In this document: piece after piece, positions 13,546 to 61,308 of the stretch
How the letters are laid out: each line of letters opens with the position of its first letter
Numbering within the stretch: the stretch's first letter is position 1
Source of the DNA: Spironucleus salmonicida
Lineage: Eukaryota
Assembly: GCF_000497125.1 (NCBI RefSeq)
Contig: NC_090602.1
Location: 1,364,001-1,428,000 of the forward strand
Reading direction: 5' to 3'
DNA length: 64,000 nucleotides
The notes under the pieces: model-generated
Databases searched by the model: none
What the model was told of the DNA's origin: nothing
Seen by the model: only the letters and a program-made list of their open reading frames with translations
Position numbers and translations under genes: made by a program

Positions 13546-14610
13546 ATGGGTTGTGGTACAAATAATGCTTCTGTCACAGATAAATCTTCGACTATTCAAT
13601 AATCTCGCTCAGCACCCCCTCCTAAAGGAGCTAAAAAGGAAGTATTGAAATACGTCACTGGTCGTATTTTCCCGGTTCCCAGCTATTCTAATATTGGTTA
13701 ATCTCTCCCTCCAATGAACTCAGTAGCCTTCGGTGTATTATCAACGATCAGGCCCCGTAGAGCTAGTTTGACTCCTCTAGCCCAAGCTGCAGTCGATTAG
13801 ATTGCCGTTGCGGCCGCCAAATTTCAAACTTATGCTGACGTTAATATTTCTCGTGATGAATTACCCAACGTTATTGACTGCTTCAGTCAAGATTTTCCAG
13901 AAGTTTTCTGGGTTCATATCAACATTGCTTATGCATCCAAAGAGGGTCAGGTCATCCGTGTTGATTTCGATAAATTCGACTATCAGATGGTTTCGAAACG
14001 CTTCAACTAACTTAAAGACATCTGTTCTAAGGTATTAGAAGGAAAATAAATTACCTCTGCCTTCCTTGCCTGCTATGAAGAAATTTTGTAGATACAAAGT
14101 GACATCGAGAAACATGGTTCGGACCACTGTTTGATCGACCGTAAGGCCTCCCCTGCCGCAATTGCAAAGGCTCTCCAGCTTTTGTTACTCAAATGCGACA
14201 TTCCTGCCGTCGTTTTGGACTCGAAGTTCGTCGCCTTCAAGGTTGACCAGACATGGTCTTTAACGAACCCAAGCGAACGCTTATCTGGTATCAACTGTGA
14301 CTGCCAAAATGTTAATTTGGAGGGTCTCTCCATTGCCAATTTTGAGAGTTTCCCTGCCTTCTGCCCTAAGGTTTTCGGCCGTTACGCTGCAATTTTGGCC
14401 AGCCAGGGATGCTGCAAAACTGCTGAAATAATCGTGAAGGCATCTGCTGCCGACGTTCAGCTCGTTCAAGCAGATTTCGTTGAAGCCATTTCCGCTGTCG
14501 GAACAGGCCACGTCTGTAAAATCGTGGTTTGCGAAAATAATGATTTGGGCCTTTGCGGCGTCACCGTTACACTCGGGGACGGCGATTTGGTGTTCGAAAT
14601 CGCTAAATGA
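13546..14610 (+). CDS. MGC-acylated transglutaminase-like (probably inactive) protein, 354 aa
   Basis: Starts MGCG. DFPEVFW motif, then RKASPAAIAKALQLLLLKCDIPAVVL...FKVDQTWSLTNP, which follows the transglutaminase-core pattern without the Cys/His/Asp triad. Confidence 0.65.
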
Positions 14611-42677: not shown

Positions 42678-43729
<1,052 letters not shown>

Positions 43730-43877: not shown

Positions 43878-44831
43878 ATGGACTTCTAACAAATTTTTGA
43901 TTTACTTCTAGAAGATAGGTAGGTAGGTTAGGAAGTTGAGTTAGAAGAGGAATTAGTCATGAAAGTATGTTAAAAATTTTAAGAGGTTTACTAAAATCAG
44001 TCTGCAGTTCAAGATATAACTTCAGAATAATGCTATATTGTAGGAGATGTTCATGGTTAATTTTATGACGTAGTTAACTATTTTAAGACACTTGCTTTGC
44101 CATCTGTTGCAAATTATATATTTCTTGGAGATTACGTAGATAGAGGTGTTCAATCCGTGGAAACTGTTATGCTTTTATTTTTGGCTAAAATTTTATTCCC
44201 ATCTAATATTACGCTTTTAAGAGGAAATCATGAACAGGAGTCTTAGTGTTGCAGTCAAAACTACGCATTTCCTTTTATTACTGAGGTCGAAGAACGATTT
44301 GATAATTATGAGTCTGTCATGAAAGTATTCCTACGTTCATTTGAATTTTTACCTCTAGTTGCAGTTCTTAATAAAAAAGTATTATGCGTTCATGGATGCA
44401 TCCCTTCATTTATTCGGTCTTTAAATCCGTATAGAGAGATAAATTTACCTGTTTAATCTAATTAGCTTTAGAGTAATATAATTTAACATTTATTGTGGTC
44501 AGATATTGTTAGGACTGCCATTATTGATGCTGAAATTGAATTTAATGGCGAAGTTTTCTCTATCACATCTAACCCAAGGCGAGGTGTTGGTGAGTAAGTT
44601 CCAGAGGGGAAAATTTTGAAATTTTTAGAAGAAAATAATATGGAAGTTTTGTTTAGAGGCCATGAGGCTGCTAGGGATGGTGCAGAAATAGGAGTTTCTG
44701 GACGTGTTTTTACAATATTTGGAGCCACAAACTACTATAAAACAAACTAATGTGATGGAGCAGTTGTAGCTTTAATCGATGGCGAAACTATTAATTTTGA
44801 GATATTCAGATCAGATTATGTTGAAAAGTGA
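43878..44831 (+). CDS. Ser/Thr protein phosphatase, PPP family, 317 aa
   Basis: GDVHGQ (Q = TAA), [33 protein letters not shown]. Confidence 0.95.
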
Positions 44832-44842
44832 ACTCTATATAT

Positions 44843-46330
44843 TCACTCTATTTGTTCATCTAACTATTATTTTTCAAATCGAGGTACCTATAAAAATGCC
44901 GCCAAGCATACTTTTTACAATATATGCATAAAAGGCCCGATATTCGAATTTGACGATATTTCTATCATTGAAAGCTCCTAAATTGTCATATTTTATGATA
45001 TTGCCATTGATACCAGATCAACTAACCCAGTAGAGTCGCGAGTTCCCATAATTTAGCACCCTAATATTTTAAATGTAACCTCTGAAAAAATTATAATAAT
45101 AGATGAAATATCATCTTCAGTTGGAGTAAAATTTCGTATTATATCTTCTGAAAGCATAATTTTAGCAATATTTTATATTCCCATTGTATCAGAAGATATA
45201 CCTGTGCACGCTAATGCAAAACTAAAAATTTATATCCCAAATGAACCCTGCGTACCTTACATAGTGATATCTTTTCCTAAAATCTGATATGCTGCTACAG
45301 CACCTTATCTAATAGCATGCGTAGCTAAAGGTAAATACAAATCTTACTTAACTGAATTATTAAATATTTAGCAGCAATCCCCAGCTGCATACACATTAAG
45401 AATACTAGTTTCTTGTTTTGAATTAACTTAAAGAGCTGTATTATTATGTTTCAATATTTTCAAATTATCACTTTATAATACCATTTTAGTATTTGGTGAG
45501 AAACCTGCAGCTAGTATAACAAATTCAGCTTCAATTTATTGGTCTCCAAATAAAATACATACTCCAGTATCAGTAGATTCGACAGATTTGATCTATTGTC
45601 CAAGAAAAAGTTCTGCACCTTTCGTCAGAAATTCATCCTAAATAATATCGGTATAAAACTCTTCAAAATATTTTTACATTATTCTTTATGACTGGTCTAT
45701 TAGCTTTACTTTGGCTTTAACTTCCGTAAGTGCATATGCCAGCTCTGTACCAATGTGGCCAGCTCCTAAAATTGCTACGGTTTTGAATTTTAGTTTCAGC
45801 AATTTAAGAGTGTCATTATAATTTTTACAAAATAGAATTCTGGGAGAATTCATTTTGATAAGTTTTGGTAAATACTGTTTTGAGCCTGTCGCTATAATTA
45901 ATTTATCATAATTGATACTACCTAGTAAACACGTAGATTAATTTTTAAAATACACTATCCTTGCTCCATAATCAATCTATTAGACTTCTGTATTATCTTA
46001 AACCTCAATATCTAATGATTTTAATGTTGCAATTGAGTTATAGAACATTTAATTTAAATTTGTGCATACTCCCATAAGAGCCAAATGAATTCCGCATGAT
46101 AGAAATGAAATAGTTTAATTTTTTTCAAAAATCGTTATTTGGATTGCTTTGGACCCATTTCTTAAGACTGCAGCCGCTACTGTTCCTGCATGAGTGCATC
46201 CAATAATGACAACGTGATTTGATACCTATTTCTATATTATTGGTATATCTAAATCTAAACTTAAATCTATATCTTTTTCATTTTAAAACTTGGGTTAGGC
46301 ATACTAAAGTTATATTTGTCCACATCCCAT
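44843..46330 (-). CDS. NADH oxidase (Nox/Npx/CoADR-type flavoprotein) paralog A with MGC N-terminal extension, 495 aa
   Basis: IIGCTHAG, ISFLSCGIHL (redox Cys), YDKLIIATGS, GAGHIGTELA, TSILNVYAAGDC, LPLATHAIRQG. Confidence 0.93.
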
Positions 46331-46513
46331 TCACAAATTACTACAATTTCATCTTATTCTATATATAATTTAATCTGCACTAAAAACGCAAAAAATCATA
46401 CATCATAAATTATATAAAATTAATAATAATGTTATTGTTTATAGTTAGAATACTCTGATAGAGTATTAAATCGTTTTAATAAAAAGTGATAAATGTTTAA
46501 TACAATATGTCAC

Positions 46514-48019
46514 TCATTGATTTTAAGACAAAACTTACTAAGACCCCTCATCGTCAGTATTTTCTAAGAATACTGGAATTTAAATTGAAGAAACTAAACA
46601 TATCTATTATACTAAAGATAAAAACTGGGAAATTCTTGGATTGTAACACCACTCCGACATTCCAAGTTCATTAACTGTCATATTTGCACTAATAGCCAGT
46701 GAAACTACATCGATAAACCCAGTTAAGTCGAGCGAAGATATCACTTAGCAACCTAAAATTGCACGTGATTCTTCATTATATAACAGCGTTATTGAGCCAA
46801 TAAAATCATCGTTGTGTTAAAAATTACGAATTATTTACTCTGAAAGCACGAGTTTTGACACATTTTTCATTTACTAATGTGCAGCTTCTTCCATACTCAG
46901 CCCTGTACATGCGATGCAATAATCAAAAATATGCATTCCAAAAGACCCCTACGTGCCATGTGCTTATATATGTTCATACCCAAGCATCTAGTATGCAGCA
47001 ATTGTACCCTACCTGATCGCATTTGTAGCAAGCGGAGAGTAAACGTTACTTTAGCTAATATTATGACGAATACAGCAACAATCACCGGCGGCATAAACGT
47101 TCGCAATACTAGTTTCCTGCTTTGAATTTACATCAATAACGTAATTAGTATGTTTCATCTGCTTCAAAACATCTGACTAGAAAACAATTTTGTTATTCGG
47201 TGCGAATCCGGCTGCCAGAATCACGTAATCCACCTCGATTCGCTATTTACCGTATACAATCTCAACTCCATTTTCTGTGCAGTTCACATCCTTGATTTCA
47301 TCATTCAAAAGAATTTTGCAGCCCCGCTCCTCGAATTGCTCTTCAAGTATATCGGTATAAAAGTCAATAAAATACTTTTAAAGAATTCTAGAGGATTAGT
47401 CAATTAGGTAGACCTGACTATTGGACACAGTGAACGCATATGCAAGCTCCGCTCCGATTGGCCCAGCACCCAATATTGCAATTTTCGAGTCCCGAAGAGC
47501 GAGCAATTTATGAGTATCGTCATAGTTTTTGCACCATAAAATACGGTTATTTGCGTTGCGAAGGAAACGCGGAATCTACGGTTTTGAGCCTAGCGAAATA
47601 ATCAATTTGTCGTACTCTTCTGTCAAAAGTTAGTCAGTTCTTAGGTCTTTGTAGAAGACTGTTCTTGTACCGTAATCAATTTATTACACCTCACAGAGAT
47701 AGTTTACGATAATACCACTTTGTTTCAAGTTGTCTACTGAGTTATAGAACATTTTGTCAATGTTTGCGCAGTTATCCATGATGGCCAGGTGAATCCCACA
47801 TTATAGGAAAGAAATGCAGTTATTTCGCTCGAAAACTGTTATTTTCATGCGCTTGTCGAAGTTTCGAAGCGTGACGGCGGCTGCCGTGCCTGCATGAGCA
47901 GATCCAATGATACACACTCGAAGTGGAGTTATTTTCTTAGCTAGTACTGGCTTTTCTAAGTTTTCTTCATATAGGATATCATTGGGAGGTTTTTGGGAAA
48001 GCTAGGTGGCACAGCCCAT
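46514..48019 (-). CDS. NADH oxidase paralog B with MGC N-terminal extension, 501 aa
   Basis: IIGSAHAG, ISFLQCGIHL, YDKLIISLGS, GAGPIGAELA, VYAAGDCC, PLATNAIRSG. Confidence 0.93.
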
Positions 48020-48044: not shown

Positions 48045-48401
48045 TCATTCGCCTCTTTATGCTGTTTTAATCATTTCCTCAACTTTTGACTCAGCTTCTT
48101 TAACCTTACCGCTAACATAGGAAATAGTTCCAGTAATAAGCTGAATATCTTTCTTATCTTTCTCAGTATTGACATTCATAACTTACTTTAGTTCATCAGT
48201 ATTCATGACAAAGTAAGCTTTACCAGCATTTTTATAAAGGGTAGCTGAAGGAGACTCATTTAAAGCATTCAAAGTTACATCGCGGTGTTTAACCTCAGCA
48301 TTCAATTACTGAAGTTATCCCTATAACTATTCTTATTGACGCATAAATGCTAACATTGATGACTGAGCATTAACAAATTCTTATTAAAAGTTACCGTCCA
48401 T
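48045..48401 (-). CDS. Prefoldin beta-type subunit (PFDN1-like), 118 aa
   Basis: Coiled coil, then TLNALNE...LYKNAGKAYF hairpin, then coiled coil with SYV. Confidence 0.8.
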
Positions 48402-48485
48402 TTCAAAATTTATGGAACGATTACTTAAAATCATTATATTATTATTATACGATATTATATATAACCGCGCTATTTGAATTACAAA

Positions 48486-53191: not shown

Positions 53192-54249
<1,058 letters not shown>

Positions 54250-59673: not shown

Positions 59674-61308
59674 ATGGGATGTTCATCATAATAAGTAAAA
59701 GACTAAATAGTAAATGAAAATATGTTCAAATTACCATCATAATAATAATAATTATAGGCAGGTATTAAATTGCCACAAAACAAGGAACTTCCTATAAACT
59801 ACCTAGAAATACCGACAAGATTAATTATTTCTTAACTAGTTTCATCTAAGTCTCAAGAATAAACAAATGCAGTGACCAAACCTAATGCATTATTATATAG
59901 AGTTGCAGAGCTAGTTGTATAGGCGAATGCCTAAAACTTTAATGAGTTTGTACTTGTTTTTGATAGCCAATTCTAGTCTAACTAATAGCTTTAATGGACA
60001 GGTTTCATGATGAATTTATTGAATGTATTTATAAGAAGAATGACTAAAGGGTTGGTGTTTGGTATTGATTCTTTAGTGCAAACTTAGAATAATGAAATAA
60101 CTTTAGTTATTTCAACAGCAAAAACACTTAAGTACTTGTATTCTGAATAAAAAATTGAATAAGATGAATTAGAGTATATGTTTGCTGATATTTGCATTAG
60201 CGCTGTTAAAAATCAATAATCTTTTATCGAGATTACATACGATCCATTAACGCTAAATACGACTTAAGTTCAGCTTTTGTTGAAGGAAGTTTATAAGACA
60301 CACACAAAATTATAAGACACATTTGGTAGAACTTTTGCAAGTTTAAGAAAACTTAACTAACATAGCTTGTTTAGTTTTACTGTTCTCCTTTTTACTTTAG
60401 ATGCTATTTAAGAAATTCTTAACGGCGCTGTGAATAAAGATTTAGTAGTTTCAAATTCATTTGAACTTAAATATAATAAAGACTATGAGAAAAAATTTAA
60501 TAATCGTAGTTTCTTTTCGAATTTAATTGTAAATTCAGCTTATAGATAGCTTATGTTCTTTATTGTTGATAACATTAACTAATATGCTTAAACAATTACG
60601 ATTCCATTTGAACTTAGATTTAGACCAACGTTTTTAAGTGTATTCTCATAGATGATGTCATTTTAATATCCAATGATGTACTAGTATCAATTAGAGCCTT
60701 TGGAGTAGCAAGATGGTTACCTCACTAAACTATCAGTAGAAAAGGCTGATTAGGCATATAATAAAAAAGTTGATGGTCTATTGGCTTATTTATGTAACTA
60801 AATTCCAGAACAATATAGAAAACTAGTCAATAGTATTTACTCTAGATCAGCAATTGATGACTAAAATGCAGAAAATTATTCAGACAACGAAGAGAATTCA
60901 AAGGATAAAAATTAAAAAATAACTGAGATTGTAGATTTTGTTTTATAAGAGTATCTGTTTAGTCCATAATAAGTTATTGATATAGATGTATCTAAGTATG
61001 ATTAAGATTATATCTAAAAGAATATGATATAAATTAAGTAAGAAATAGAAAATAATTTACTTGGTGGTGATGAAGTTAAAATTGGAGTTACTCTTGATTA
61101 AGAAGTTTTCATTAAAGTAGAAAAAGTTACAAATAGAAATAAATCGAGATAATAATCTAGAGCAGCCGGTCGTAGATAGGTAATGGTTAAAGATGAAGTT
61201 GAAGTACTAGGGAAACGCAAAGTATATGGAGAAGAGTAACATGAAGAACTAAATTACGATGATGCAGCTGGAAAAATTTAAATGCTATTTTATGATATTG
61301 ACCTTTGA
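59674..61308 (+). CDS. MGC-acylated hypothetical protein, 544 aa
   Basis: Starts MGCSS, open to TGA 61306. An internal segment resembles part of the 13546 protein. Confidence 0.7.

Follow-up and report, generated by a model that had tools for sequence, protein, structure and literature searches.

The NADH oxidases (Nox) of diplomonads have been described before: those of Spironucleus salmonicida and Giardia are reported to share one lateral acquisition, and the genes considered here are catalogued as NADH oxidases (accessible portions of PMC6934886 and PMC6397501), while the genome paper, in its available text, also counts four S. salmonicida NADH oxidases (PMC3916229); neither the genes nor their bacterial origin are therefore new. 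The Nox named in the accessible part of PMC6429047 is a different one, SS50377_12178, annotated as a separate TIM-barrel family. Diplomonad oxygen defence has so far been tallied by gene number, with the four S. salmonicida genes taken as equivalent. Here we describe two of them, which lie in tandem in a 64,000-nucleotide stretch of the genome (NC_090602.1, positions 1,364,001 to 1,428,000; hereafter the window, in whose own numbering all positions are given). Both start with Met-Gly-Cys (MGC), a signal predicted to anchor them to a membrane, and have lost both of the C-terminal loops that presumably complete the active site of a partner subunit; this combination of a conserved MGC tag on a Nox with loss of both partner loops is real and apparently unreported.

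An original prediction, made from the DNA alone, had placed two bacterial-type NADH oxidases with eukaryotic membrane anchors at 44843-48019, and these positions are the exact outer ends of two tandem minus-strand open reading frames (ORFs) under NCBI table 6 (TAA/TAG = Gln), the code used for the whole window. The sequence is AT-rich and long genes appear in it only with TAA and TAG read as Gln; a table 11 reading yielded only fragments and was dropped in favour of table 6. MGC-Nox 1 (P0001; 44843-46330, 495 amino acids, start MGCG) and MGC-Nox 2 (P0002; 46514-48019, 501 amino acids, start MGCA) are intact Nox-family genes, 50-51% identical to each other. They seemingly correspond to SS50377_13397 / EST46593 and SS50377_13396 / EST46592, respectively: P0001 and 13397 are both without a dimerisation-domain hit (InterPro; PF02852), whereas P0002 and 13396 are the only pair with one. 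The four runs of assembled contigs showed no joints that would indicate introns in either gene.

The bacterial ancestry proposed for the pair was supported by profile, by structure matches and by published trees. The top profile was the H2O-forming NADH oxidase NOXase_Strep (NCBIfam NF046103), at 284.3 bits for P0001 and 303.2 bits for P0002, about half of the cut-off of 600 of this Streptococcus-centred model. The nearest solved structures, in agreement by sequence, were the water-forming Nox of L. brevis (5ER0) and L. sanfranciscensis (2CDU) (TM 0.93), and the window pair has the two-dinucleotide-binding fold and the C-terminal dimerisation domain of the Nox2 type. In the AlphaFold2 (AF2) model of P0001 the Nox core is well folded (mean pLDDT 85.8), with dips of confidence at the two degenerate C-terminal loops. 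A CoA-disulfide reductase (CoADR) identity was rejected for the pair, which has no GGxAAG, CGLPY or YYPG and scores below the family cut-offs (NF007123, TIGR03385). Searches covering the 14.5 Mb assembly (42 contigs) gave a genomic Nox complement of four, out of five candidates: P0001, P0002, the canonical P0125 (SS50377_13934) and the divergent P0122 (SS50377_14284). Two further proteins of this assembly, from outside the window, are identical to named S. salmonicida records (EST45955 and EST45712), in keeping with this hexamitid diplomonad as the source.

An alignment with 35 non-redundant references, containing 85 columns conserved at 80% or more, revealed that the MGC proteins (the window pair and their Hexamita inflata counterparts, P0042 and P0342) retain what a subunit contributes to its own catalytic site. 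In P0001 this site comprises His47 and Cys79, the counterparts of His10 and Cys42, and then a His in CGIHL that is specific to the clade (46091-46201, minus strand, as are all features of both genes), and, further on, the CKNY lysine (Lys134 equivalent), which we take to act in the catalytic site, together with the NADH-domain motif GAGHIG, with His for Tyr (45749-45832). P0002 has His42 and Cys74, then CGIHL (47795-47905), and the CKNY lysine with GAGPIG, where Pro replaces the conserved Tyr (47453-47536). The motifs listed by the original prediction were likewise found in the pair (GCTHAG/GSAHAG, SFLSCG/SFLQCG, GAGHIG/GAGPIG, YAAGDC and EISSNSNIG/EWCYNPRIS, with YDKLI in both translations). 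The MGC proteins keep 21-23 of the 26 conserved columns of the first FAD segment, His10 and Cys42 included, 15-17 of the 22 conserved columns of the NAD domain, GxGxxG, the first Glu, the LIDQ acidic residue, the FAD GD motif and the dimerisation-domain helix SxAI..xMT..L. The role of Cys42 is described in the accessible text of PMC11423319.

The divergent C-terminal motifs, which had been pointed out as a possible sign of an altered product or substrate, were the most informative part of the locus, and both partner loops are degenerate. Loop 1, xxRPEFMP in the references, reads IIRNFTPTE in P0001 (45116-45142) and IIRNFQHND in P0002 (46808-46834); loop 2, DFFFQPHF, reads EISSNSNIG in P0001 (44936-44962) and EWCYNPRIS in P0002 (46628-46654), the latter being partly degenerate with the aromatic-x-Pro kept. 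Only one of seven columns of RPEFM and DxFFxPxF is left in P0001, and two in P0002. The loop 2 Phe, present in 35/35 references, is Ser, Tyr or Gly in the MGC proteins, and those of H. inflata have an insertion of about 40 amino acids in loop 1. Loop 2 was matched in 271 of 273 other proteins having His10 and Cys42, one of the misses being an offset artefact and the other real. The Tyr of GxGYIG, also invariant in the 35 references, is His or Pro in the window pair and in only 2 of 404 other proteins; CGIHL occurs in 0 of the same 404. The RPEFM and DFFFQPxF loops presumably complete the active site of the other subunit (a Phe424'-type flavin contact), and the CoADR counterparts contributed by the other subunit are Tyr361' and Tyr419'. 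In NADH peroxidase (Npx), residues of the opposite subunit take a share in catalysis, in CoADR they line the site, and half-sites behaviour is described for the E. faecalis Nox (available part of PMC6026696); no openly accessible paper naming such in-trans residues in Nox was found.

The mirror image of this pattern was detected in catalytically dead paralogues. In P0122, His10, Cys42, PLATNA and the lysine of CKNY are gone, whereas RAEFMP and DFFFQPYFGKP are still there; the partial record P0360 follows the same pattern; and the Cys-less P0376 of H. inflata keeps five of the seven loop columns, with a cluster that, judged by accession and contig, is the neighbour of the canonical P0128 cluster. 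Over 15 hand-picked own-site columns the MGC proteins keep 15, 15, 13 and 13, compared with 0 for P0122 and 2 for P0360, whereas over 7 hand-picked loop columns the MGC proteins keep 1, 2, 2 and 2, and P0122 and P0360 6 each; the canonical P0125, which has no N-terminal extension, keeps 7/7. The genome that encodes the MGC pair hence also encodes a dead paralogue with the complementary loss, as in enzyme-prozyme systems, and mirror-image loss is what a homodimer decaying into a one-site heterodimer would be expected to leave behind. An orthology of P0122 and P0360 was considered because both have RAEFMP, a Lys in the column of T413 and a tail that reads PPxExYK; their union in trees is a long-branch meeting and is not relied on. 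Further Nox-like proteins (P0303, P0313, P0385, P0387 and P0397) are without the His10/Cys42 motifs and keep the DxFFxP loop; two of these, P0387 and P0397, are named as lactic acid bacteria. Bacteria too may have Nox-like proteins that are dead and yet retain the loop. P0387 (Periweissella) carries a short MGLLSKLF extension.

The N-terminal extensions had been put at 35-40 amino acids, which agrees with P0001 (37 amino acids; 46220-46330) and slightly overstates P0002 (32 amino acids; 47924-48019). In P0001, Met-Gly-Cys-Gly, with putative Gly2 myristoyl and Cys3 palmitoyl sites, leads into a disordered linker (residues 1-36 have pLDDT <50 in the AF2 model), and in P0002 Met-Gly-Cys-Ala is likewise followed by a linker. 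Upstream of either MGC ATG there is no in-frame ATG, with a TGA immediately before that of P0001, and the next in-frame Met (M86 in P0001, M58 in P0002) lies downstream of the His10 equivalents H47 and H42; therefore the MGC ATG is the sole start that gives a whole FAD domain, and this survey ruled out alternative start codons for both genes. The transcript-type data consisted of assembled contigs from four runs of one study, presumed to be RNA with none recorded as such, which cannot show a transcription start or rank expression; in all four runs the P0002 ATG is inside a contig shared with the upstream prefoldin gene, while the listed P0001 pieces stop at 46320, ten bases short of the ATG. 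Poly-A loose ends occur in the contigs just behind both neighbouring stop codons.

The same start was found in H. inflata, in P0042 (three records) and P0342 (three full-length and one fragment), all beginning with MGCGS, with linkers of 26-27 amino acids; the six full-length records fall in two 90% clusters and are about 32-40% identical to the window pair. MGC starts were present in 6 of 409 collected proteins, all six from diplomonads, and beyond the tag the linkers are poorly conserved between genera, with 6-10 identical positions among 23-29 residues. In trees, the four MGC proteins included formed one clade (SH-aLRT 99, 99 and 100 in three trees, these being quick searches with SH-aLRT support only, one of them without nine bacterial rows), which falls among the diplomonads and not among the bacteria; this indicates a single gain of the tag, later than the transfer and earlier than the divergence of Spironucleus and Hexamita. 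P0280 (a Logan record, 456 amino acids), a canonical Nox whose branch lies between those of the bacteria and the diplomonads, may come from another anaerobic protist. A profile search, within its best 120 of 475 matches, added only P0042 to the window pair; such searches are incomplete, as P0342 was absent from those 120 and was recovered by another search. Among the matches listed no Giardia protein was identified and none was named Trepomonas, and a metagenome scan of 80 loci gave no MGC start among the 20 ORFs displayed, plus-strand ATG-Gly-Cys occurring in five of the 80 loci and never at the start of a displayed ORF.

The genome also encodes the machinery that such a tag would need, namely one NMT and 21 DHHC matches. 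ATG-Gly-Cys-Gly sites number 71 genome-wide, against 13 for the reversed control pattern, and MGC sites with an AT lead number 79 against 25 for the control (101 against 71 in the MGY comparison); 15 of the 30 MGCG sites fetched from the 71 resembled gene starts. Four window ORFs of at least 350 amino acids start with MGC. Because MGC and a linker are kept in H. inflata and NMT and DHHC enzymes are encoded, a selected dual-acylation anchor on these proteins is likely, and MGC can be taken as the real N-terminus, as the prediction had assumed: it is the only usable ATG and is kept in the second genus. PROSITE-type myristoylation consensus asks for a small residue (S/T/A/G/C/N) at position 6. 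Since only 7 of the 15 credible MGCG starts fit, and one MGC annexin has Asp there, this rule looks relaxed in S. salmonicida. We judge acylation and a membrane or flagellar location of the MGC proteins to be very probable. Annexins 3 and 12 of this organism have predicted dual acylation and are flagellar (PMC4863580, in its accessible portion), a precedent by which flagella would be as good a destination as the cell cortex. Neither 'myristoyl' nor 'palmitoyl' appears anywhere in the main text of PMC6934886, PMC6397501 or PMC3916229, and a literature search that covered few subscription journals found none that connects a diplomonad Nox with acylation or with a dead partner; the one published hint is a 'Cell membrane' prediction (0.35), made automatically and given in a supplementary table.

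Taken together, these data suggest the following course. Diplomonads would have acquired a Firmicute H2O-forming NADH oxidase once, laterally, and a duplicate in the Spironucleus-Hexamita common ancestor would have gained a general Met-Gly-Cys tag on a floppy linker of 26-37 amino acids. With Gly2 myristoylated and Cys3 palmitoylated, the protein would be held at a membrane, facing the cytosol and most likely at the flagellum or the cell surface, where it would bind FAD and NADH and run Cys-sulfenic-acid chemistry on O2 or peroxide; that the MGC proteins have such flavin and Cys redox activity is probable from the residues retained. A paralogue that has kept the loops would supply them in a heterodimer with a single working site, which is about as plausible as not, leaning slightly to the latter; the best candidate partner would be the dead P0122, with the canonical P0125 as alternative, although that the dead copy is the one is doubtful. 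The role would be local, low-level redox housekeeping at the membrane and not bulk O2 removal. As a whole, our tentative proposal, somewhat short of probable, is a catalytic subunit that is anchored to a membrane or flagellum and is completed by a paralogue with intact loops. Its boldest form, a hexamitid prozyme pair within the flavoprotein disulfide reductase family, in which a lipid-anchored catalytic and a dead structural subunit make an obligate one-site heterodimer at the flagellar membrane, is speculative, and so is the notion that such a pair fixes the half-sites asymmetry of bacterial Nox into two genes.

The proposal of a cortical oxygen shield did not agree with the published RNA-seq. 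Under O2 and without antioxidants, respectively, the log2 changes were 0.52 and 0.68 for 13396, 0.14 (not significant) and 1.55 for 13397, 2.58 and 1.06 for the canonical 13934 (P0125), and 0.13 (not significant) and 1.55 for the dead 14284. The tagged genes thus respond to O2 by 0.52 and 0.14, compared with 2.58 for the canonical copy (given our assignment of genes to proteins), and a shield is disfavoured because the O2-responsive scavenger is the untagged copy. The nearly identical responses of 13397 and 14284 fit a partnership. In a published table the top DeepLoc call for 13396 is 'Cell membrane' (0.35), whereas DeepLoc and BUSCA put 13397 in the cytoplasm.

Several observations weigh against the proposed anchored heterodimer as a whole. 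The agreement of 13397 with 14284 concerns one gene pair, for which there is no null distribution to compare, and the response of 13396 (P0002) is different. The own-site and loop motif sets were picked after the alignment had been seen. When the 85 columns were split at the domain border, columns kept only by MGC proteins against those kept only by dead ones were 37:3 in the N-terminal and 6:7 in the C-terminal part (Fisher p = 0.0009; control P0125 against P0122, p = 0.43), a result that comes mostly from decay of the dead class, with columns that are not independent. Mirror-image loss could equally arise if the two classes had met separate, unrelated fates, and the partner need not be a dead one, since the canonical P0125 keeps both loops. 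An H. inflata orthologue of P0122 was not among the best 150 matches, and the placement of P0122 is unstable: with P0360, as sister to the MGC clade (89), or nearest to P0125 by score. P0002, with its loop 2 aromatic-x-Pro, may still homodimerise. In four MGC proteins the nicotinamide-side Tyr is changed to His/Pro and the second Glu of GxELxE to Tyr/Trp, and NADH turnover may be altered. Lastly, position 6 is Ile in P0001 and Gln in P0002, off the consensus given above, while H. inflata has Asn and Gly.

An anchored enzyme that acts without any paralogue would also account for the tag and for the retention of the own site. In such an enzyme the loss of the loops would open the Cys pocket to bulkier or lipid-borne acceptors or let H2O2 leak, which we consider unlikely but worth keeping in view; its candidate acceptors, lipid hydroperoxides, quinones, protein disulfides or sulfenic acids in the manner of the myristoylated FSP1, are named with equal reserve. 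The clade-wide flavin-side changes (CGIHL; His/Pro for Tyr) and the induction of SS50377_13397 without antioxidants and not by O2 speak for it, as does a membrane-associated NADH peroxidase activity reported for Giardia (PMC6856725, accessible part), although Giardia is listed with a single Nox gene (PMC3916229, in its available text) and its membrane peroxidase may be a different protein. Retention of the dimerisation-domain helix argues against this explanation, which also leaves the upkeep of loop-keeping dead paralogues in the same genomes unexplained. An ordinary homodimeric H2O-forming oxidase shielding the cell cortex is improbable: the top profile and structures, the retained His10, Cys42 and Lys134 equivalents and the DeepLoc call for 13396 are all as it would predict, but both profile scores are far under the family cut-off, both loops are gone from proteins whose peers nearly always keep loop 2, O2 induction is weak next to that of the canonical copy, and the precedent for an MGC tag in this organism is flagellar.

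More improbable still is a redox sensor or scaffold, FAD-bound and with a Cys switch at the membrane, whose NADH turnover is no longer efficient. The nicotinamide-side changes in all four MGC proteins compared and the absence of both loops would fit it, and the dead paralogues show how readily the Nox family forms pseudo-enzymes in diplomonads; on the other hand, the dinucleotide-binding residues, from GxGxxG and the first Glu to the LIDQ acidic residue, the FAD GD motif and most of the conserved NAD-domain columns, have been retained. That the MGC start is unacylated and the proteins are soluble, divergent paralogues we hold to be very unlikely: the off-consensus position 6 of both window proteins and the cytoplasmic calls for 13397 are in its favour, whereas MGC is kept across two genera while the remaining linker diverges, and MGC starts are enriched genome-wide with an equally loose position 6.

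Around the pair, the window contains two inverted GAPDH copies of 999 bp that flank the Nox genes (42717-43715, plus strand, and 53206-54204, minus strand). They differ by one synonymous change (43427), their identity stops 12-14 bp beyond the coding sequence, and they have a GC content at third codon positions (GC3) of 0.90 and zero TAA/TAG Gln codons; the pair represents a recent duplication or gene conversion. A calcineurin-like phosphoesterase gene (43878-44831, plus strand) converges on P0001, with a poly-A loose end at 44845 that overlaps the P0001 stop codon, and a prefoldin subunit gene (48045-48434, minus strand) ends 25 bp before the P0002 ATG and shares one contig with P0002 in 4/4 runs. 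MGC is frequent on unannotated proteins of this genome, and the other two MGC-start window ORFs (13546-14610, plus strand, 354 amino acids; 59674-61308, plus strand, 544 amino acids) have no Pfam match.

According to their sequences, the four S. salmonicida genes comprise one conventional Nox, two putatively lipid-tagged ones without the partner loops and one that is catalytically dead, differences that alter how the published O2-response data should be read. The locus presents an enzyme of bacterial origin that, once transferred laterally, was given a eukaryotic-type targeting tag and may since have been subfunctionalised, with catalysis in one subunit and a structural role in the other. Because S. 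salmonicida can be transfected and tagged (PMC4863580, accessible part), the anchor and heterodimer claims are directly testable.

Compared with known systems, the MGC proteins share with the Firmicutes Nox (NF046103; L. brevis 5ER0, L. sanfranciscensis 2CDU, S. pyogenes 2BC0) the fold, His10, Cys42, the CKNY lysine and the FAD/NADH motifs, and differ in the MGC linker, the two degenerate C-terminal loops, the His/Pro for Tyr and a score of about half the cut-off. Giardia GL50803_33769 and S. salmonicida P0125 derive from the same lateral acquisition as the window genes, but P0125 lacks the extension, has both loops intact and is the copy that O2 induces. CoADR have the same single-Cys homodimer fold, and the loop 2 Tyr-x-Pro of P0002 resembles, by eye, the CoADR YAPP; the MGC proteins, however, have His10 and CGIHL in place of GGxAAG and CGLPY. 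FSP1/AIFM2 is an N-myristoylated FAD-dependent NAD(P)H oxidoreductase at membranes, with a quinone substrate and without a Cys42/His10 centre; it is a distant sequence match to P0122 and belongs to another subfamily than the MGC Nox. The alpha19-giardin and S. salmonicida annexins 3 and 12 have, like the window pair, a predicted N-terminal dual-acylation signal, and are flagellar (PMC4863580, as far as its accessible text goes), but are native eukaryotic phospholipid-binding proteins and not laterally acquired redox enzymes. One annexin of this genome starts with MGCSAD (L118), and another (L121:1396, plus strand) with MGAGSTTSKC, a second acylation-type N-terminus. The trypanosomatid prozymes (AdoMetDC and deoxyhypusine synthase), in which an impaired paralogue is completed by a dead one, would be a protist parallel to the proposed heterodimer; they belong to other enzyme families, carry no membrane anchor and have been shown biochemically, whereas the pairing suggested here is read from sequence (accessible portions of PMC5201418 and PMC3663545).

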